Source: an uncultured Verrucomicrobiae bacterium
GTDB taxonomy: Bacteria > Verrucomicrobiota > Verrucomicrobiia > Limisphaerales > Palsa-1400
NCBI GenBank assembly: GCA_963707025.1
Contig: CAVPOM010000012.1
Span: forward strand, 64,001 to 128,000
Reading direction: 5' to 3'
DNA length: 64,000 bases
Part shown: in pieces, positions 27,665 through 43,196 of the stretch
Layout: each line of letters starts with the position of its first letter
How positions within the stretch are numbered: position 1 is the first letter of the stretch
The notes under the pieces: generated by a model
Database searches by the model: none
Told to the model about the DNA's origin: nothing
Seen by the model: the letters and a program-made list of their open reading frames with translations, nothing else
Program-made: the position numbers and the translations under genes

Positions 27665-27767
27665 AATGACCTCCAGCCTGAGCCGGGTTGGTCGGGATTC
27701 ACCCGGCGATTGTCTATCGAACGTGTAACGCCATCCCGGCGCCGCGTCAAGTGCCGCGCGGCCGCAA

Positions 27768-27853
27768 CAGTGCCTTAATTTGGTGTAGAGTCGAGGCTGT
27801 GGCTCGGCTTCGGCCCAGAGCGCCGACCCTACAACCATGAAATCAAGGCACTG
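27768..27853. repeat. REP doublet/MITE family G2
   Basis: cagtgcctt...aaggcactg terminal IR with internal GTAG palindromes. Confidence 0.75.
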
Positions 27854-28050
27854 CCGCGGCCGCAACCTGGTTCCAGGCCCTGGCCGCGCCGCCGAGGGCG
27901 CCTGCCGGCGTGACCCGCCCCTGGCCGGACGCTGGCCCGGCATGTAGCGACAACCATGAATTTCCCTGAATAATTTGGAGCCTGAACCGTCCAATCTATG
28001 CCGGATTGGCAGGATAACTCTTGCGAGGTTGGCTTGCGGCGGCAGGCGCG

Positions 28051-30081: not shown

Positions 30082-30273
30082 GAACAGTCTATCGGCTTGT
30101 CCGCATTCTCACCCCATTCGCCTGCGCAGGTCAATGCCGAACCGAAAACCGTCACGCCTTCCAGGCGGCCAATGCGGCCCGGTAGCGGGAGGGGTCAACC
30201 CGGGGAGGCGGGAGGGGTCAACCCACTGGTTCCTCGACCTTTTCCGTGGATCTGATCGGGCAACGACGGATTC

Positions 30274-30474
30274 GGGGAGCGCGTGCGTCTCGCACGCCGT
30301 GTTTGGCGTCCCGCCAAACACATCCCGGCTTGGCCTCTCCCGGAAGGCAGCCCATCCGAAAGTCAATTCATGCCAAGGAACGGCGCAGAGGTGGGTCGCG
30401 AGACGCGCCCCACGGCGACCGGGAAGTCAGAACAACAGTAGGCTGGCCCGCTGAGCGGGCTGGTCGCGCTCCCC
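30274..30474. repeat. palindromic intergenic element with terminal IR ggggagcgcg/cgcgctcccc
   Basis: terminal IR plus internal pairs gcgtctcgc/gcgagacgc and tgtttggcg/cgccaaaca. Confidence 0.55.
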
Positions 30475-30703
30475 AACCCTTTCAGTCTTCAGCGGGAATC
30501 CACTGAAATCGTCGAGGCAACTCCAGACTTTGGGTTGACCCATTTTCGAGTGTCCATAAGTCGTTGCACTTCAATCTATTGCATCCCAATTTGGGCAAAG
30601 CTATAGTTTGACCGCTTTCACTGGCAAAGGGAGGGTGAGGTGCGCCACACCCGTTACACCGTTACAGTTGTTGATTATCAAAGGCTTACGAAAACTGCCC
30701 CCG

Positions 30704-31080
30704 TTACACCCCGTTACATTTTGTTACATCCAGCTTGCCGCCCTTCATCAGATCGGTCAGGTCTTCGATGAGTTGCTCCCTGTCAATGGCCCCTTCGCTG
30801 CTTTCCATGAACTTTTCTACGGCTTGTGCCTCGTTTTGCCCATCAACCACCTCCTGAGCGGCCTTGGCGGCTGCCAGCGCCTCATTTTCCTTTGGCGCTT
30901 CGAGGGCGAGGTCGCTCATGGCGTGGAGTTCTGGGAGCTTCCTTTGCACTTCTTGCTTGAGCACGTAGTGGTCGAGGGCTTGGCGGAAGGCCGAGACTCC
31001 GTCGTCAAGGGACCTTCAGCGACTTCACGACCAGGCTGATACCAGGGGCTTCGGCGACTCTGACGTTTGAGGAGTAGTTC
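30704..31080 (-). pseudogene. degraded 3' fragment of an unknown gene
   Basis: helical protein-like ORF 30704-30964 that extends upstream through a frameshift; no start codon. Confidence 0.35.
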
Positions 31081-31162
31081 TGATAAGGGGAATCAAACGT
31101 CAGTCTCGCCGAAGGGGGAAAGCGAAGGTGCAGGACAGGGCAAATATATGGTCTGACCCCTT

Positions 31163-31401
31163 GCACACAAACTGACTCCAGCAGGAAAAACCCCGGCTAT
31201 GACGTTGGGCCTTCAAATCGGCGACGTGCCGCGCGAAGTCAGGGCGATGAAAAAGAGAAAGGATTTGACTAAAGAGGCTTCCGGTTCGAATCATAAGTTG
31301 TCTCCGTTGATGATGGGTTTGGGTTCATGTTTTCACCCTCATTCTCATCAAAGACGGAGACCCTTTCCACCCTTTTTAAAAAGCTAATTTGGACACTAGT
31401 G
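31163..31401 (-). mobile_element. IS4-family left end and truncated transposase N-terminus (DUF4372-like)
   Basis: MIRTGSLFSQILSLFHRPDF...GFSCWSQFV; putative end cactagtgtccaaa at 31401; cut at a GGTCTGACCCC motif. Confidence 0.7.
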
Positions 31402-31694
31402 AGTTCCACCGGCGGCCTGGACTCCGGCATTTCCACCTGCACGAAATCCGGCGCAGATTGGCCCCGGTCCCGGCGTTGCCGCCAGCCGCAAAAGGTGGTG
31501 TAAGGGACCCCTTGCTGACGGGCAAAATCGGCGGCGGACAACCCGCTGCGATCAAACGCCCTCAGAAGTTGAGCGCGCCGGGCGGCATCGGTGCGGGGTG
31601 CCCGGCGTCTCGGATAAACACGGTTTTGCTTCATGGCCGGGTTTTTACCACGGCCGGTTGACAACTAATAGGGGGACCCTCCTTTACCGCTTAC
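31402..31694 (-). mobile_element. tnpA: IS66-family left end and truncated tnpA
   Basis: GTAAGCGGT end at 31694; SGLSAADFARQQGVPYTTFCGWRQR...FVQV. Confidence 0.75.
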
Positions 31695-31825
31695 TACAGG
31701 ATGACCACGGGGTCAGACAACTGGCTTTGGGACATTGCTGGGCTCGGGTTGATAACGGCCATCACAAGCACTGCATTCGCTTTCATCAACCAACCGCGAG
31801 AAAACCGGCCTTTTTAAACGGGCTG

Positions 31826-32335
31826 CTAGTCACCAACCGGACGCACCAAACAATTCGGGCCCAATTTCAAGCTCCCGTTTTTGTTAGCGTCGCCCCAGCA
31901 GGGGTCAATCGGAATAGTCCTGCCTTTAAACTCTCCGGTTAGAATCACGCCATATAAGGTATAGCCGCTTCCGTTATCTGCAAACCAGCGTGTCAGCTTC
32001 GCGCTCCGAAAGGTAGTTCCCTTTGGTAGCAAATGCAAATCTTCCCAATATTTCCCAGGATTGGATTTGAACATCGCGACCGTTATACTACTGTGGAAAA
32101 TGGATTGAGAATCATACTCAGGCGTAGCCTTGGTCGCCGCCAATGTGAGCTCAACGCCATTCAGCAGCGTATCTTGCCTTAAGGATAAAATCTCGCCCTT
32201 GTGCAATTCACCCCACCATGACGGGTCTGAGGTCACGTCATACGTGCGCATTCCGAATCCGGTAAACATACAACCACTCAACAAAGAGACTAGTATTACC
32301 AATAAGCAAACAACGCGCAGATTCTTCATATTCAT
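31826..32335 (-). CDS. lipoprotein, putative Rhs immunity protein
   Basis: lipobox LLSG-C; 6 bp downstream of the Rhs stop; low GC. Confidence 0.7.
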   Translation of the reverse strand: MNMKNLRVVCLLVILVSLLSGCMFTGFGMRTYDVTSDPSWWGELHKGEILSLRQDTLLNGVELTLAATKATPEYDSQSIFHSSITVAMFKSNPGKYWEDLHLLPKGTTFRSAKLTRWFADNGSGYTLYGVILTGEFKGRTIPIDPCWGDANKNGSLKLGPNCLVRPVGD

Positions 32336-32341
32336 CTTAGC

Positions 32342-34504
32342 TCAATTGTTGCCGTGAGCTAGATCTAAATTCAGGAGATGCATGGCAATATTGCATCCCT
32401 GGCTGTGACAGACCCAAAGGTAGTCATAACCGCTCGTCGGAGCCATCGCATTCTGAATTACGGACTCCAATGATGGCATTGCCTTACCAAGCGCCACATA
32501 CGGATTCCAGATCAATCGCTCGCCACCTCGCGTCGGCGGTGGAGCAGGGTTTGGCATGAGAGGAGTGGGATGGCCAAAAAACCCTTCAAAATTGTGATTC
32601 CAGATGAAAAAACTGCCTGGGTATACCGCATACACCGTGCCGTAAGTCCTCCAGTACTGATAATCTCCCTGAGAACCAAAGAAACCCTGATTCGGAACGG
32701 CATCGTAAGGGCTCCAATACACATCTACGGTAACATTGTTCGCGCAACAAGAAGGGACCAGCGGGGGGGTGTGGGTTTTTGGCGCAACCAGCAAAATGAG
32801 GATGTGCTTACCGCACAAGCCTTGCGTAACATTCTCGCTTGCCATTCTCGTGGCTTCGCCATCTAATAGTGATTGCGACCATGGCAGGGCAATGCAGATT
32901 GCGGTTGGGTCTACTCCAGGCCAATAATGCGGCCCCCATCCGGCACGGCTTCTCAAACTTGTCGCGGGATGCTCATTCACATGAGCCAATTTTCGAATTG
33001 CAACATCCACATAATCTCCGTAAGTATTCGGCGCATATGGATCTGAGTTCCAATTTTCTATTCCAGAGAAGGTCCAGAGCGCAGTAAAGCCACGGCCGTC
33101 AATGGCTATCGTCGCTGCATTGTCGACAAAACCGTATATATTCAGACCACCTTGTTCACCGACCGGGTCCCGGCTCAACCATCTTCCGGTGGAGGGGTTG
33201 TAATATCTGCAACCGTAATAATAAAATCCGGATTCCGAATCGCGATATTTGGTTGAGAATAGGAATGGATTGTTCAGCGCCATCGGGCCTGTGGCGCGAA
33301 TGAGTTCGCCAAAGGCCCCGTACTCATATTGCGCCGCGATGCTTCCGTTCCCTGCATTCACCGACGCCGTGACGTTGCCGTTCCCGTCATAACAATAGAA
33401 ATACGTCCCCGCATTCGCCCCGCCATAAACCCTCATCGAAAGCAATCCTCCTACTCCGCCTGCCCCTTGCGGCGAACCGCTCAGGTCCAGCCCCCATACG
33501 AACGAATAGAGCAGGTTGTCCCCGCCGTCCAATATCGCCACCACATTCCAGCCGTCATAAACAAATCTGTTTGTGTAAGAATAAACCCACCCGCTTCCAT
33601 TGTTGGTCGAGACAATCTTCTGGATACGCCGGCCCATGTAATCATACGTGAAATTCAGTTCGAGCAAGGACGCGACCGGGCCGCTCAGGCTGGTCATGTT
33701 GGTCAGCCGGTTCTCGGCGTCCCAGCCATAGCTCCAGCGGCCGTCGGACAGCAGGTTGCCATCCGCGTCGTAACTGTAGCTTTCCGGCGTCTGCGGCACG
33801 AAAACATGGCCGATGTTGGTCGTGCCATATTCGGCGTTGGTCCCATACCCATTGGTCAACGCCGCCAAGGTCGTCACCGTTTGATAAACCGCGCCGGGGC
33901 CGTTGGTGATGGGCAGTTGCAGCCAGAAGTAATTGGTTTTTCGGTAGGTCGGGGTTTGGTCCACCCACACCGCTGCCGTATTGGTTGCGCTGCCGATCAC
34001 GTCCACCGCTCCCGGCACCGTGCGGCCCGTGTATTCGTTCAAATTGTTGGCAGTGTAGCCGGCCAGGCGCTGGTTGGCCCCGTTTTGATCGCCCCCGGCG
34101 AGCGTCATCCGCCGGTTGCCGATGGTGTCGAAGCCGTACCCAAACTGCTGCCCCGCCACCACCGAGTTGTCTCCCCACCGCTTCACCGCGTTGGTCACCT
34201 GGCCCAGCGAATCATACCCATACGTCCAATACGTATTGTCCACCGCCGTCACCGCCGTCCGCTGGTTGGCCGCGTTGTATTGATACTGATAATTCACCAC
34301 GGACATCCCGGAGGCCGCCGAGGAAATCGCCGTCAACCGGTTCAAATAATCGTAACTGTTGCTCGTCGTCATCACCGTCGTGGCGTTGCTCGCAAACGTA
34401 ATGTGGTCCACCAAAGGCGAATTGGCAAGATACGAATACGTGGCAGAATTGGTCCCGTCCGAGACGGTGGAAAGGCGACGGTTGATCGGAATCGTGTTCA
34501 TGCA
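32342..34504 (-). pseudogene. rhs: orphan Rhs module: partial YD-repeat core, Rhs-associated core and C-terminal toxin; 5' end cut at the REP repeat
   Basis: YD repeats; YEYGAFGE, FSTKYRDSESGFYYYGCRYYNPSTGRWLSRDP, IDGRG; toxin tip contains CHSQG. Confidence 0.88.
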
Positions 34505-35516
34505 GGTGTCAGTCCTTACTATTGACACAAGGTTATTTGGAGGGCTCTTTTTCATGCAACAAGTTGGACACGTAGGTCCAACGGCCCATGTGCAACCGCC
34601 GCGCAATCCATTGCAAGGTCCTGGTTGTTTCCTGACGCAAGCGTCGCGCCAGCTTCACCTTCTCTTTATCACCTTTGGGCCGCCCGGACAATTCCAGTTC
34701 TTTCCAACCCAGCTCCTGCAATCCTGCTCTCACGATCCTTTGCGCTTTTTCCTCGTCCCTTTCCTGCCGGTCGGCGCTGTAATGGCTCGGCCCCGCTCGC
34801 ACCCCGGCGCTCTGCCGCAGTTCCCGCCGAAATTCCTCGTCGCCCAGACACCAACCACGCCGGATGGGGCCGTAGTCCGCCTCGGCCTCCTCCCTTCCCC
34901 GTTGCTCCATCAACCGCCCAAACTCTCTCCGCCCTGCCAGGCTGTCCCGCGGTATCCTTTTCTCCCCAAGCAATCGGTCCACCCGCAACCAGGACGGACG
35001 TTGACGGGCAGGCCTCACATAGTCTGCGTAACTGCTCCAGCGAAAACCTTCCAGGGCCGCCCCGGCCTTGATCAACCCGGCCCGCCTTGGATTCAAATGC
35101 ACGTAGTCGCAAACCGCCGCCAAATAGCCCTTGCCGCTGCCGTCCACGATCAAAGCCTTGTAGCGCCCCCCAAAAAAGTGCCCGCAGACTTTATGGCGAA
35201 TGTTGAAACGCTTGGTGTAAACTCCCAGCAGCCATTTCATTCCCACCACCAGGTTGGGCTCTGGCGTCTCCATCACCAGATGAAAATGGTTGCGCATCAG
35301 ACAATAGGCATGAACCTGCCAGCCCGTCTTTTGACAGACCTCGCCCAGGGCGGCGAGAAATCGTTCCCGATCTTTCTCATCCCGAAAAATATCCTCCCGC
35401 CGATCCCCGCGATTCATCACATGATAAATCGCTCCAGCGTATTCCATGCGCAGAGGTCGTGGCATGACGGCATCCTACCACAGCCCGCGCTAGTGTCAAT
35501 AGTTAGGACTGACACC
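34505..35516 (-). mobile_element. REP-flanked HUH tyrosine transposase element with 24-bp inverted ends
   Basis: GGTGTCAGTCCTWACTATTGACAC at 34505-34528 and its reverse complement at 35493-35516; each end is itself palindromic (GTGTCA...TGACAC). Confidence 0.85.
34533..35465 (-). CDS. REP-associated tyrosine transposase (RAYT-like, Y1_Tnp) with C-terminal HTH
   Basis: MPRPLR, YHVMNRG, YCLMRNHFHL (HUH), YVHLNP, WSSY. Confidence 0.9.
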   Translation of the reverse strand: MPRPLRMEYAGAIYHVMNRGDRREDIFRDEKDRERFLAALGEVCQKTGWQVHAYCLMRNHFHLVMETPEPNLVVGMKWLLGVYTKRFNIRHKVCGHFFGGRYKALIVDGSGKGYLAAVCDYVHLNPRRAGLIKAGAALEGFRWSSYADYVRPARQRPSWLRVDRLLGEKRIPRDSLAGRREFGRLMEQRGREEAEADYGPIRRGWCLGDEEFRRELRQSAGVRAGPSHYSADRQERDEEKAQRIVRAGLQELGWKELELSGRPKGDKEKVKLARRLRQETTRTLQWIARRLHMGRWTYVSNLLHEKEPSK

Positions 35517-35518
35517 GG

Positions 35519-35634
35519 TATATTTGCATTATTGTGTCCATTCATTCGTGCTTTTTCTCTCTTGAGGGTTGGTGCTCAAAGTGTTCCGGGTTGCAAGTGC
35601 AAAAACGCGCAAATATATGGTTTGACCCCTTTGA
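35519..35634. repeat. REPIN/MITE-like element B, left-truncated copy
   Basis: nearly identical to 37936-38051. Confidence 0.85.
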
Positions 35635-36004
35635 CGATCAAAGCCTTGTAGCGCCCCCCAAAAAGGTGCCCGCAGACTTTATGGCGAATGTTGAAACGCT
35701 TGGTGTAAACTCCCAGCAGCCATTTCATTCCCACCACCAGGTTGGGCTCTGGCGTCTCCATCACCAGATGAAAATGGTTGCGCATCAGACAATAGGCATG
35801 AACCTGCCAGCCCGTCTTTTGACAGACCTCGCCCAGGGCGGCGAGAAATCGTTCCCGATCTTTCTCATCCCGAAAAATATCCTCCCGCCGATCCCCGCGA
35901 TTCATCACATGATAAATCGCTCCAGCGTATTCCATGCGCAGAGGTCGTGGCATGACGGCATCCTACCACAGCCCGCGCTAGTGTCAATAGTTAGGACTGA
36001 CACC
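35634..36004 (-). pseudogene. duplicate 5' part of the RAYT gene with its upstream REP end
   Basis: nearly identical to 35146-35516; REP at 35981-36004. Confidence 0.9.
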
Positions 36005-36200
36005 GCCACACCGGCACACATGACCGAGGGGAATCGTTCAACGGCTGGCCGATATGGGCGGTGCCCGCTTCGTTCGGCGAAGAGGTGGCTTCCACGCCAT
36101 TGAGTCCTGAAATTGTGCGCGAAGGTGAGGAAAGAGCGCGGGAATTGAGGTTGTACGCGGCCCGTCTCGAAGTGCTGGATGGCCGTAATTTGGACAGAAT

Positions 36201-37487
36201 CTATGGCGATTGATTCGGGGTTAATCGGGCCGCGAAATGCCCGGCGAAATACCAATTTTTGGCGGTTCGCGCCAGATGTTCGTGGCCATGCGAGGTACTG
36301 ATGCTGAGGGATTTGATCTGCTTCGTCGTGGCGTCCATCTCGGCGACAGCAATTTGCATTCCCTCTCCCTTTGGCCACCAGTTGAAAAAGTAGCGGGCAA
36401 AGTAATTTGTCCCGAATTTCTGCGGTGGAACAATCTCGGGAACTTTCCTTAACTCGGGCACAAATTGGGTCCAGCCAACGCTATTGACGGTCTTTGTGAC
36501 GACGGCCAAAGCTTCGTTGGCAGACATTGTGACTGGCCCAAAGAACTGCTCTGGAGGTTTGTCCCCCGGCGCTTCATTCGGGGCGGACCACCGTACCGCG
36601 TCATGCGCGTCGAATTCAGTGACGCGACCGTGGCTGTAAACAAAGCGATCACCCGTCTTGAGATAGAAAAACGCTTTCGGATCGCCCTCAATAAGGCCGC
36701 AAACGTAACTTTGAGCAACCACGTCATTCGTTGTAAGTGGTAACTGGACGTTAAGGCCAGCCTTCGTTACAAAATCAGACGCTTGTGGCAGGATGGCCTC
36801 GAGGAATGCAAGTGCATAAGCGGGGCTTACCGGCTCTAGCTTGGTGCCACCCACGGGTTGCGACTTGGGAGCCAATTCAACGATAGGGGGACGAACCGCG
36901 AGCTTGGGATCGGGGCGGCGGGCGCTCCGGGTTTGTATCCCCAACATAAGAATTTGGCCGGTGGTTGCGTCAACCTCAACAGCCGTTCGTTCGCGTGAGA
37001 ATCCTCCGGGCACGGTTGGCGCACCGGGGTCAAGCCACTCCACCAGATACCGAGCAACCTGCTTTCCCTCGCTACGCGGTGGGGGCGTTATCTTTGCTGG
37101 ATGGTCGAGATGCAATTCTGCGTCGGCATAGCCAAGCCTCCTGAGTGCCAGGTGCGCGATCTTTTCCGCCTGTTCCTTTTTGATTTTCACTTCGCCGTAG
37201 AATTCCCGAATGCGCTCGGGTTCTTGAAGCGAATAATAACTCGAGGGAGACCGATACAGAACGACAGCGCCTTGGTCGAAAGTGAATGAATAATCATTCG
37301 TCAGGATTACACGCCCGCCAACGTGATCCGATCTTGGTGAGCAACCAAAGCTTCCAACTTGGGAAATTGTAACTGGGTGTCCCGTCGGTAAATCCAGCGT
37401 TTTGGCGAAATCGGATATATGCGGGAGAATGGCGGCCAAAACCGCGTTGGAATAGGCCGCCGTGACTTGGAGAATTTCAAAGGGCAT
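36201..37487 (-). CDS. hypothetical protein with two internal homologous domains (possible frameshift near the C-terminus)
   Basis: AYSNAVLAAILPHISDFAKTLDLP vs AYALAFLEAILPQASDFVTKAGLN; EFYGEVKI vs QFFGPVTM; ARYLVEW vs ARYFFNW; AVEVDATT vs VAEMDATT. Confidence 0.65.
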   Translation of the reverse strand: MPFEILQVTAAYSNAVLAAILPHISDFAKTLDLPTGHPVTISQVGSFGCSPRSDHVGGRVILTNDYSFTFDQGAVVLYRSPSSYYSLQEPERIREFYGEVKIKKEQAEKIAHLALRRLGYADAELHLDHPAKITPPPRSEGKQVARYLVEWLDPGAPTVPGGFSRERTAVEVDATTGQILMLGIQTRSARRPDPKLAVRPPIVELAPKSQPVGGTKLEPVSPAYALAFLEAILPQASDFVTKAGLNVQLPLTTNDVVAQSYVCGLIEGDPKAFFYLKTGDRFVYSHGRVTEFDAHDAVRWSAPNEAPGDKPPEQFFGPVTMSANEALAVVTKTVNSVGWTQFVPELRKVPEIVPPQKFGTNYFARYFFNWWPKGEGMQIAVAEMDATTKQIKSLSISTSHGHEHLARTAKNWYFAGHFAARLTPNQSP

Positions 37488-37549
37488 AAAAATCAGGTGG
37501 GTCGCTAAATGCGCTGATAAACTCCGCGCGTTTGCCCACTTGGCACGGT

Positions 37550-37849
37550 TTACGGCCAATTGCCTCGGTAGTTATACTGATCAATGTGAAGATATGGGTA
37601 TCCGTACAGCTTCAACGCTGCACCGGGCTGCGAGGACATACTCCACCCGCTAATTAAGGGCAAGTCAAGCATCGCCTGAGCCATTGCAGAAGATACATCC
37701 CAGCCCATAGCGTTACTGTCCCAATAAAACAGGAAATTGTAGTAGAGATACGGAACTTGCCACGGAATCGTACCGTCGAATACTTCACCGTTCATTGTCA
37801 CCTGGCCTTCATTGGCAAAATAACTCTTCCCGTGGTTTCCCACAGTGCA
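37550..37849 (-). pseudogene. C-terminal gene fragment cut at a REP end (possible toxin tip)
   Basis: open frame from the REP junction to the stop at 37550; low GC; no native start. Confidence 0.45.
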
Positions 37850-37917
37850 GGTGTCAGTCCTAACTATTGACACAAGGTTATTTGGAGGGCTCTTTTTCAT
37901 GCAACAAGTTGGACACG
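37850..37917 (-). mobile_element. REP end plus the last codons of the RAYT gene
   Basis: matches 34505-34572. Confidence 0.85.
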
Positions 37918-37918
37918 A

Positions 37919-38051
37919 TCAAAGGGGTCAAACCATATATTTGCATTATTGTGTTCATTCATTCGTGCTTTTTCTCTCTTGAAGGTTGGTGCTCAAAGTG
38001 TTCCGGGTTGCAAGTGCAAAAACGCGCAAATATATGGTTTGACCCCTTTGA
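37919..38051. mobile_element. REPIN/MITE-like element B, full copy with 26-bp perfect terminal inverted repeats
   Basis: TCAAAGGGGTCAAACCATATATTTGC ... GCAAATATATGGTTTGACCCCTTTGA. Confidence 0.85.
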
Positions 38052-38068
38052 CTTTGACTCCCTTCGAC

Positions 38069-39337
38069 TCACGCCTTCCAGGCGGCCAGGGCGGCGCGGT
38101 AAATCTCAGCCAGGGGCAGGTTCTTTTCCGCGGCCAGTTTTTTGCAGGACTCAAATTCCGGCGCGACCTGCGCCACGCCGCCATCCAGAAATCCCAGTTT
38201 CACCGTCACTTCGCCGTGGGGCGTGCGCACGACGCGAAATTCCCGGCGCAGCTTGCGGCGCTCCGCCTGGCTGCGGCGCACGCCAAAGGCGCTGGTGTGG
38301 CGCAGGATCATCTCGCTGAATTTGTCCGCCTCGCCCTCCGCGCACAGGACGCTGAGCAGCACGCCGGGGCGGTTTTTTTTCATTTGGATCGGGGCGTGGA
38401 AAACATCCAGGGCGCCGGCCGCCAGCGCCGCCTCCATGAAAGCGCCCAGGATCTCCGGGCTGGCGTCGTCCAGGTTGGTTTCCAAAACGGCGATGGTATC
38501 GCTCTCCCAATCCTGCGCGCCGGCTCCGGCGCTCTGGCCCAGGATGGCGCGCAGGACGTTGGGGCGGGTCTGGTTTTCGCGCGAGCCTGCGCCCAGGCCG
38601 ATCCTTTCCGCCGCCAGCCCCCGCATCGGTCCGAATTCCACGGCAAATTCCGCCAGCAGCGCCGCGCCGGTGGGGGTGATCAATTCATGCGGTTCGGCGC
38701 ACTGGGTCAGAGGGATGCGGCGCGCCGCCAGGATTTCCAGCGTAGCCGGCGCCGGAATGGGCAAACGCCCGTGCGCGCAATCAATCCAGCCCGTGCCCTC
38801 CACGGCCTCCCCGGCCAGGACGCGCGGCCGGCCCAGGATGTCCAGGGCCGCGCAGCCGCCCACGATGTCCACGATGGAATCCACCGCGCCGACCTCGTGG
38901 AAATGGACTTCGCCGGGGGGCAGCCCGTGGATTTTCCCTTCGGCCACAGCCACGCGCTGGAAAACGGCGAGGGCTTTTTGCTTGACCCACCCGGAAAGGC
39001 CGCTGGCCGAAATCAACTCCCGGATTCCGGAATACTTTCGGCTGGGTTCCTCTCCGTGTTCGTGGGCGTGTTCGTGCCCATGTTCGTGCCCATGCTCGTG
39101 CTCGTGCTCGTGGCCATGCTCGTGCCCATGCTCGTGGCCATGCCCGAGATGAACCTCAAATTTCACCCCGTCCATCTGGCCGCGCCTGGCCCGATGGGCA
39201 TGCAGGTGGTAGCCGCCCAGGGAAAGTTTGGCCAGTTCCTCTTCCACCTGGCGCAGTTCCACGCCCAAATCCAGCATGGCCCCCAGGAACATGTCGCCGC
39301 TGATCCCGCTGAAAATATCCAGATAGAGTGTTTTCAA
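38069..39337 (-). CDS. larC: nickel pincer cofactor biosynthesis protein LarC
   Basis: [11 protein letters not shown], His/Glu-rich tract, [36 protein letters not shown]. Confidence 0.93.
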
Positions 39338-40284: not shown

Positions 40285-40401
40285 GACCTCTGCAAAACGC
40301 GCGTCCACGATTGTAGCGGCGGTCTGTGACCGCCGCAAACCAGCGGAAATAACGGTATGGCGACGGTCATAGACCGCCGCTACAGGCGTTTTGCTGAGGT
40401 C
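40285..40401. repeat. GTAG-type REP doublet family G1, full copy
   Basis: gacctc...tgtagcggcggtctgtgacc...agaccgccgctaca...gaggtc. Confidence 0.8.
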
Positions 40402-42876: not shown

Positions 42877-43196
42877 ACTTTGGCGCGATGCAGTGCAGCG
42901 TCAAAAGAATCGGCGGCTCGGTCCCGCCGGGTGGCTGCACACCGTTGAGCATGGCCGGTTCGCCGCAGCTTGCAGAGCGCCGGTGAAAGCCAGTGGCCGG
43001 ACTTAGAGCGGTTTCACAAATACTGTAGCCGCATTACAAGGCAGGGTCCCGGCAGGCCGGGATTGCCCGCCGCGGCGCGCACGGAGTGCGCGCCCTACCA
43101 CCCTCATTTAGGGCTACACAATTTCTTAAACCGCCCTAAACCGGCGACCGACGCGCTTTGATTTGCGGCGGTCACAGACCTCCGCTACAACAGCGC

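Follow-up and report, generated by a model that had tools for sequence, protein, structure and literature searches.

TIRYT transposase ends as likely break-and-join points for toxin-immunity modules in a verrucomicrobial genome

The closest described relatives of the system analysed here are the TIRtrons with their transposases, the TIRYTs. As described in the accessible parts of PMC3733652, PMC6006769 and PMC5581495, these are Y1 HUH enzymes that carry the motifs NH[YF]H, Y[IV]HLNP and SS and extend into a long tail. In place of repetitive extragenic palindromes (REPs) they have inverted repeats at their flanks, which start in a manner like GGGG[AT][CG]A[CG], and they come with dispersed families of such ends. 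In its accessible text PMC6006769 equates subclass 2.1 of the TnpA-Y1 enzymes with RAYT group 1, and probably also with the TIRYTs of PMC3733652, and ranks it as the second-largest group of Y1 transposases, present in 14.9% of strains, while the corresponding parts of PMC5581495 give RAYT group 1 the most duplicates among RAYT groups 1-5. These portions of the three papers contain no cut site, no one-ended units, no cargo and no link to Rhs genes, and their evidence for mobility consists of duplicates alone. We have analysed a locus of this type at positions 34501-38068 of a 64,000-nucleotide stretch of DNA from an uncultured Verrucomicrobiae bacterium. This stretch, the window, covers positions 64001-128000 of contig C12 of genome G000; coordinates are window positions unless a contig is named, and G, C and L denote genomes, contigs and fetched loci. 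The locus is a nest of TIRYT elements, whose ends likely act as break-and-join points that import toxin-immunity modules. The family is already in print; what the locus adds is an empty site with a displaced allele, a controlled enrichment beside Rhs genes, a strand bias and the nature of the cargo.

Three further systems invite comparison. The REPtron RAYTs, or TnpA-REP enzymes of groups 2 and 3, share the HUH/Y chemistry with a cut near the repeat and transfer to a 3'-OH; in the available sections of PMC8266576, TnpA-REP cuts single strands, holds the 5' side on its tyrosine and joins it to a 3'-OH, with cleavage between C and T in other groups. Compared with what those sections describe, the window family lacks a GTAG foot and a conserved hairpin, its repeats number in the tens and not in the hundreds, a genome has several copies of the gene, and a purine takes the place of C before the inferred cut. 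Subclass 2.1 genes beside prochlorosin genes (10.1101/2020.03.09.984088) are the nearest precedent: full and truncated copies cluster with a diversifying family of antagonistic genes in a fixed relative orientation, and the authors moved their causal claim back to undecided. Finally, the C-terminal displacement of Rhs proteins and the orphan arrays of type VI secretion systems, as far as covered by the accessible parts of PMC2935791 and PMC5361080, feature truncated cores with a tip and an immunity gene, displaced gene tails and homology-facilitated illegitimate recombination with one homologous and one illegitimate joint. Those parts name no enzyme that would make the illegitimate joint; in the window, this joint coincides with a transposase end. 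In the literature searched (subscription papers and supplements excluded) we found no link of these transposases to Rhs or polymorphic toxins, the mentions in the accessible parts of PMC6329079 being unrelated, and no activity, cut site or cargo for the TIRYT family; the supplements of PMC6006769 and PMC3733652 may list such elements.

In order, the nest comprises an intact transposase gene, a short repeat termed B, the duplicated 5' part of the transposase gene together with its end, the cargo, a duplicate of the 3' end and a second B:

34501-34528, plus strand: family-A 3' end, TGCA plus a 24-mer (sequence comparison, stutter analysis).
34533-35465, minus strand: intact TIRYT transposase, 310 aa, with NHFH, YVHLNP and SS motifs and a long C-terminal tail (open reading frame, profile matches, published motif table).
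35493-35520, minus strand: family-A 5' end, joined into the left terminus of B copy 1 (sequence comparison).
35519-35635, unstranded: B copy 1, a second-family mini-element without its first 17 bp (sequence comparison).
35636-36016, minus strand: 5' part of a transposase gene (~107 codons), with its 5' end at 35981-36008 and an 8-bp stutter.
36066-36191, unstranded: piece of a dispersed repeat at the inner cargo seam (80-84% copies on C4, C5 and C9).
36201-37487, minus strand: 428-aa PepSY-like partner gene.
37550-37844, minus strand: the 3'-terminal 96 codons for a secreted protein of ~690 aa, in which a caspase/gingipain-like domain is predicted.
37846-37917, plus strand: family-A 3' end (37846-37873) and a 44-bp stub of the element 3' part.
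37918-38052, unstranded: B copy 2, complete, with perfect 26-bp inverted ends at 37919-37944 and 38026-38051.

The 372-bp copy of the transposase 5' part plus end (35634-36005) and the 72-bp copy of the element 3' end (37846-37917) each show one difference from the intact element, and the B copies (35519-35635 and 37936-38052) lie in direct repeat with two differences. Comparing these sequences anew bore out the permuted, outward-facing element halves around a cargo reported in a preliminary description of this DNA. The structure of the nest is real, and several of the earlier labels need correction. All seams within 34501-38068 coincide with the termini of TIRYT ends, except for the inner cargo seam.

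It is highly improbable that the nest is a misassembly of short repeats. No read or contig spans it and its repeats are 98-99.7% alike; against this, the copies differ at one or two sites each, the repeats are shorter than 400 bp in an 18-contig genome, the flanks join cleanly in relatives, and like structures occur in other genomes. Among the assembled contigs from three sequencing runs none crosses the nest, and two of the runs (X2, X3) contain relatives only. For the proposed check with spanning reads there is support at one seam only: a separate short-read contig, probably from the same sample, bridges the cargo/end seam at 37773-37923 without a difference.

As evidenced by its sequence, the transposase is a TIRYT, that is, a TnpA-Y1 enzyme of subclass 2.1 or RAYT group 1. 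It matches Pfam Y1_Tnp (PF01797, E 3.8e-13), and the assignment to subclass 2.1 follows from its NHFH, YVHLNP and proximal SS (RWSSY) motifs and the ~170-aa tail behind the core, which match Table 1 of PMC6006769. At 61 of 80 GTDB relatives both terminal repeats could be located, with the consensus start NG[GT]GTC[AG]GT; the window copy is the GGTGTCAG variant, and family B starts with GGGGTCA. The nearest GTDB relatives are mostly from Verrucomicrobia. No helix-turn-helix family matched in the six transposase tails scanned, a PDB sequence search gave no match, and the single-sequence fold was unusable (pLDDT 38). A REP-type RAYT of groups 2 or 3 was rejected, with 44 bits against a cut-off of 80 for NCBIfam REP_Tyr_transpos, no GTAG foot and no conserved hairpin. 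The same holds for IS200/IS605 (subclass 1.1), which is defined by a short TnpA bearing DH[VI]H / Y[IV]ENQ and by subterminal hairpin ends that are dissimilar: the protein has 310 aa, other motifs and inverted ends, and reaches 19 bits against 55 for NF033573. The identification as a RAYT/REP system consequently had to be abandoned, given the subclass 2.1 motifs, the REP score below cut-off and ends that are terminal inverted repeats. An intact Y1 HUH enzyme between inverted ends is retained from it, but the 6-bp hairpin is not a family trait and the end most likely measures ~28 bp.

Two families of ends are present in the genome, with 22 and 64 profile matches against 0 and 1 in a shuffled genome, and the matches are not due to chance. 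A 6-bp hairpin stem is found in 9 of 109 distinct ends and a 4-bp stem in 41; because the 6-bp hairpin is not a family trait and GTAG is missing, we regard the ends as terminal inverted repeats, not REPs. TGCA precedes both 3' ends in the nest, as first described, but instead of being a target motif it most likely belongs to the ~28-bp element end. Three observations in the sequences argue for this. The 72-bp repeat begins at TGCA. At the cargo seam, seven of seven homologues of the cargo gene have a phenylalanine where the window has a threonine across TGCA, and therefore about 5 nt beside the end do not stem from the cargo gene. Lastly, stutters occur at 40 of 238 distinct family-A ends in all DNA compared, and the cut position outside the 24-mer that fits them is 0-2 nt in none of the 40, 3 nt in 7, 4 nt in 19 and 5 nt in 10. 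Family-B stutters, at only 6 of 67 ends, are uninformative for the cut position. At the inferred joints, the base before TGCA is mostly a purine; REP-type RAYTs are characterised by C|T or C|A cleavage that the foot guides. A search for target-site duplications at 60 full elements (offsets 0-8, lengths 2-8) gave no clear excess, the largest counts against expectation being 11 vs 7.0, 6 vs 2.3 and 2 vs 0.2, although flanks may be rearranged. Many TIRYT ends adjoin one conserved flank, a TTAACTAAG-containing repeat (L055, L063, L069, L075, L104, L107, L112, L126, L047), which suggests that this repeat is a preferred target. Other hairpin repeats lie at 40307-40389, 43159-43190, 31049-31114 and 27758-27863; among them is a REP-like family with a GTAG foot, which has no relation to the TIRYT ends.

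B measures 133 bp and is a mini-element whose 26-bp inverted ends match perfectly; the left copy lacks the first 17 bp. It resembles both the 3' and the 5' ends of second-family TIRYT genes on C6 and C16 and is therefore itself a deleted element; its direct repetition is confirmed, but it is not the passive repeat it was taken for. The sequence ACGATCAAAG, said to mark both junctions with B, is transposase sequence at the left junction but not at the stub, where the intact gene reads ACGTAGG. Judged from its letters, ATCAAAG at the stub can be the terminus of B itself; alternatively, the element may have been deleted first and B inserted afterwards, with a duplication of CGA. C9:358225-358891, C12:342505-343177 and C18:315961-316627 of G000 share, at 95-96% identity, a 670-bp unit with a B-family end at its head, which is part of a 14-member end subfamily for which no transposase gene was identified.

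The preliminary description had invoked a circular intermediate by which cassettes are captured and stacked; spelled out, this model has a dedicated system that releases element and cargo as a circle, integrates it through B at a fixed motif and stacks cassettes as an integron does. The 2417-bp unit from B to B indeed corresponds exactly to a deleted, circularly permuted element that contains B, the ACGATCAAAG on either side allows a reading as a duplication of 3 bp (CGA) or 10 bp, both modules are co-oriented behind a 3' end, the permuted layout recurs in L037, and a circular intermediate for rhs tips was proposed earlier in the accessible part of PMC2935791. We nevertheless consider this model improbable, as TGCA is carried by the end, cassette borders are not fixed, with cuts at different codons, the cargo is mixed, the 60 full elements show no clear excess of target duplications, and tandem units elsewhere do without B. 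An integron-like cassette array as such was rejected on the cuts inside genes at different codons and a cargo with inner seams. In L037 (G011:C285) the permuted halves enclose a different cargo of 1.9 kb that includes, by eye, a PIN-domain toxin-antitoxin-like pair.

Elsewhere, L036 (G020:C2:2546163-2548452) contains five tandem units that each start from a 5' end and stop at different positions in the gene. On C7 a 274-bp unit is repeated with its mini-element, on C11 three family-A 5' ends retain just 7 bp of the interior, and two loci share an entire second-family element at 96% identity. Of the 40 pairs of neighbouring ends no more than 10 kb apart, 9 face outward around 0.8-6.6 kb, 7 face inward (none beyond 1.2 kb) and 24 are direct. 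Three of the nine outward pairs hold Rhs genes and one holds the peptidase module; the remaining cargo, by eye, comprises an insertion sequence (IS) fragment, secreted proteins, a prepilin-type fragment, a leucine-rich-repeat gene and a sigma-factor cluster. Of the earlier claim that the element moves itself and adjacent DNA, it is supported that the ends are mobile and join foreign DNA and that the island around the nest is an insertion.

We infer from these units that each event is one-ended, and we favour, as reasonably probable, a reading in which the HUH transposase makes the seams of the nest by cutting and joining one strand, and in which an end-made joint together with recombination imported the island. 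The transposase would cut one strand 4-5 nt outside either end, on the strand that reads TGCAGGTGTC, and remain on the 5' base of the end, to be attacked by the 3'-OH of a target. Such one-ended events would give rise to adjacent deletions, to tandem repeats that restart at the end and to end-headed pieces of variable length. The unit between the B copies would be a repeat of this kind, begun at the right end of B and trimmed by the 5' end of the intact element, and could have arisen via a single-stranded circle or by unequal sister-strand exchange. Entry of the island would have combined a joint made by an end at one border with homologous recombination at the other, which displaced the tail of larC; Rhs tip-immunity and enzyme-inhibitor modules would be added by the same two steps. 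As protection would tend to keep immunity and inhibitor genes, a bias toward such modules may result.

Single-strand HUH transfer from one end with variable DNA lengths is also a feature of one-ended transposition by IS91/ISCR and of IS608-type peel-and-paste, of which IS608 is covered in the accessible sections of PMC8266576. The window element differs from both in that one and the same inverted sequence forms its two ends and events can seemingly start at either of them, with no ori/ter asymmetry and no guide-selected tetranucleotide shown.

The nest is the right-hand part of a larger island. In five of five genomes of the same genus, larC is followed directly by a glycosyltransferase gene, whereas the window has 30185-38068 between the two, 7.9 kb with a GC content of 54.5% as compared to 65.7% for larC. 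The island is an insertion. Its remaining features and borders are:

30152-30184, minus strand: copy of the final 33 bp of larC, displaced from the gene; behind it lie the native spacer and the glycosyltransferase gene.
30185-30225, plus strand: left island border, a stuttered, truncated B-family end facing inward (by eye, below the profile threshold).
30245-31166, minus strand: unit of 922 bp that has a B-family end at its head (31140-31166) and another end in its interior (30595-30616).
31269-31664, minus strand: IS66 tnpA fragment (NF047593, E 7e-12).
31826-32335, minus strand: 169-aa predicted lipoprotein behind the Rhs tip (lipobox by eye).
32342-34500, minus strand: 5'-truncated Rhs gene, a ~470-aa core and a 240-aa tip with an HSQG motif.
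38053-38068, minus strand: right island border, where the stutter of an end plus a second end-like start are joined immediately after the larC stop (by eye).
38069-39337, minus strand: working gene with a Pfam Ni_insertion match, which we take to be larC; in relatives the glycosyltransferase gene lies directly behind it.

The 33-bp tail copy differs from the working copy (38069-38101) at three sites, all three synonymous, and at these sites the working copy agrees with G003. Three silent changes in 33 bp, set against 0.3-2% difference among the inner repeats of the nest, point to a second allele and not to decay, and either of the two may be the resident one. One homologous and one illegitimate joint is the signature described in the available part of PMC5361080, and by its sequence the illegitimate joint of the island is a transposase end. 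Among five other loci searched, the empty site was clear at the C6 Rhs and C12 leucine-rich-repeat islands, in G005 only, while C5, C13 and C7 met short contigs. The 922-bp unit recurs on C13 at 99.9% identity, again downstream of an Rhs tip.

The truncated core, variable tip and small downstream gene mark the island's Rhs gene and the lipoprotein gene, by sequence, as a putative orphan Rhs tip-immunity module. The core matches TIGR03696 (E 6e-20) and the tip is low in GC. Homology to sister copies ends at 34477, 23 bp before the end, and 34478-34500 is filler without Rhs homology. For the tip there are weak leads to alpha/beta hydrolases, its atlas matches staying below 0.9 and serving as leads only; a second atlas query likewise stayed below 0.9. 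It ends ~20 residues past the HSQG motif (32342-32420), which is short for an alpha/beta hydrolase, and may be truncated or circularly permuted. The lipoprotein, without a Pfam or NCBIfam match, is likely the immunity protein of the tip; two homologues (56-61%) at C12:245637 and C15:42642 of G000 have no Rhs core nearby. In this genome three truncated Rhs cores start within ~20 bp of each other, beside a small perfect hairpin in the core (sites C5:466261, C5:468668, C13:134888 and window 34477), a possible hot spot for breaks; the C13 copy is ~60 codons longer and ends close to a repeat of GTAG type.

Truncated Rhs genes directly adjoin TIRYT ends at two more loci of this genome, and also in relatives. 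Four of the six Rhs loci of this genome lie within 3 kb of an end, where 0.3 are expected (0.5 under a low-GC null; P 0.0002, under this null as well), and at three of them the end is within ~50 bp of the truncated core; a count at 100 bp is partly circular, as queries were cut at ends, and non-self matches give ~27, 3 and 47 bp. In the four most contiguous relatives, 5 of 33 TIRYT loci are found within 5 kb of an Rhs core (0.73 expected), compared with 3 of 151 DDE/rve transposase loci (2.2 expected; Fisher P 0.005); the counts are 4 vs 0 within 3 kb and 5 vs 5 within 10 kb (P 0.018). Of 40 Rhs loci fetched from 150 matches listed, 17 bear an end and none does in shuffled DNA; five of the 40 had been picked for a nearby transposase, leaving 13 of 35 without them, and three more of the 35 had a transposase noticed nearby. 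The near-full-length Rhs genes (L142, L143, L147, L154) carry no end in any of the four cases; L159, L164 and L169 have outward end pairs around a tip and a downstream gene. Sixteen of 17 distinct TIRYT-Rhs pairs within 5 kb are co-oriented; with a simple coding score used to call ordinary neighbours, 82 of 138 of these are (P 0.002). The direction of replication could account for part of this bias.

These data bear on another explanation, a passive pile-up, in which TIRYT elements land where insertion is cheap and gnaw inward by adjacent deletion, so that ends trim and import nothing. Enrichment of an IS4-like element at the Rhs loci of this genome speaks for it, as do the largely non-toxin cargo, the cutting of Rhs genes by ends on either side, and the occurrence of classical orphans without ends (C5:466261; 23 of the 40 Rhs loci). 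It does not account well for an island of which both borders are ends and whose site is empty in five of five congeners, for DDE/rve elements that are not enriched at Rhs cores in the four relatives, for the co-orientation of 16 in 17 pairs, or for one end-headed 922-bp unit behind two different Rhs tips. We therefore hold the pile-up to be unlikely, if less so than the circle model.

The cargo of the nest belongs to a conserved two-gene module of Verrucomicrobia without Pfam annotation (L001-L003), with at least 193 peptidase and at least 115 partner homologues, whose predicted peptidase is a secreted protein with Ig-like and caspase/gingipain folds. The peptidase gene precedes the partner gene in all three informative metagenome loci. 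The fold was tested on the homologue P0132 (pLDDT 85.6), not on the window fragment. The C-terminal domain of P0132 superimposes on CHAT (Z 12.2, rmsd 3.5, 171 aligned) and gingipain RgpB (Z 11.5, rmsd 3.4, 196 aligned), and separase and caspases match as well. With the whole model, Foldseek is dominated by Ig-like folds, PorU being the top match at a low TM-score. Residues G521, H522 and C553 are at least 90% conserved in 107 sequences of the family, and the parent of the fragment is predicted to be a clan CD (caspase/gingipain-like) peptidase with a His-Cys dyad in P0132. Among the matches seen, the family is conserved along its length; a polymorphic toxin would have a variable tip attached to a common delivery protein.

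PepSY matches were obtained for two of three partner homologues scanned. A complex model of the cognate pair P0132/P0002 scored 0.86, the best control 0.00; 116 of 157 solved pairs attain the mark for this score, as do 2 of 215 mismatched ones, and resemblance to solved complexes of proteases with inhibitors may contribute to the value. Contact agreement was at least 84% and partner pLDDT at least 88, with an interface that includes His522 and Cys553. The model supports an enzyme-inhibitor pair with the partner over the active site. As the catalytic His and Cys fall outside 37550-37844, the window by its sequence retains an inhibitor-like gene without the catalytic part of the peptidase. The toxin/immunity character first ascribed to the cargo holds insofar as this cargo looks like an enzyme tail with its inhibitor and ends abut Rhs genes, but cargo in general is mixed.

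Several observations weigh against the favoured reading. The inner cargo seam at 36066-36191 has no TIRYT end, the partner gene is frameshifted near its 3' end, with a conserved C-terminal motif in another frame, and the CACG match at the stub is left as a coincidence. Of the stutters, 21 of 40 do not fit a 4-nt cut, and some targets have TGC in common with the end (L164, L036 unit 1), so that a preference for look-alike target sites is possible. The literature searched contained no biochemistry for subclass 2.1. Ends also remove Rhs tips (L155, which equals L066, and L046). The IS4-like element lies within 3 kb of three of the six Rhs loci here (3 of 55 copies, 0.45 expected), and the Rhs loci of this genome therefore gather mobile DNA of any kind. 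Nor are genomes and loci independent of one another: 6 of the 13 end-bearing unselected Rhs loci come from G020. Finally, no Rhs gene is nearby at 28 of 33 TIRYT loci, 32 of 36 end clusters and 75 of 80 GTDB loci, the latter chosen by transposase similarity. These counts do not support a specificity for toxins; from the anticipated enrichment of ends beside Rhs tips there remains that of TIRYT loci over DDE elements in the four relatives, although most loci are without Rhs. On the favoured reading, the TIRYT system is biased toward toxin-immunity modules, but not dedicated to them.

The piece at 36066-36191 and a second one at 30628-30979 belong to dispersed repeats that are found ~1 kb apart at C5:81.6-82.8 kb and C9:283.5-284.6 kb, and they may be parts of one unannotated element.

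For the biology of the family, the locus offers a concrete substrate, a 28-bp end with an inferred cut 4-5 nt outside, together with an empty site and an intact enzyme. A wider proposal, which we put forward tentatively and regard as doubtful, is that TIRYT ends provide the enzyme-made joint so far missing from polymorphic-toxin diversification in Verrucomicrobia, where the host would keep a 'domesticated' HUH enzyme as a gene-capture device that does without cassettes. Incoming DNA would pair via the conserved Rhs core or a neighbouring gene, the transposase would ligate its far side to a resident end, and strand-specific repeats would build and swap arrays. If it is true that TIRYT ends supply the illegitimate joint, the growth of Rhs arrays becomes directly testable.

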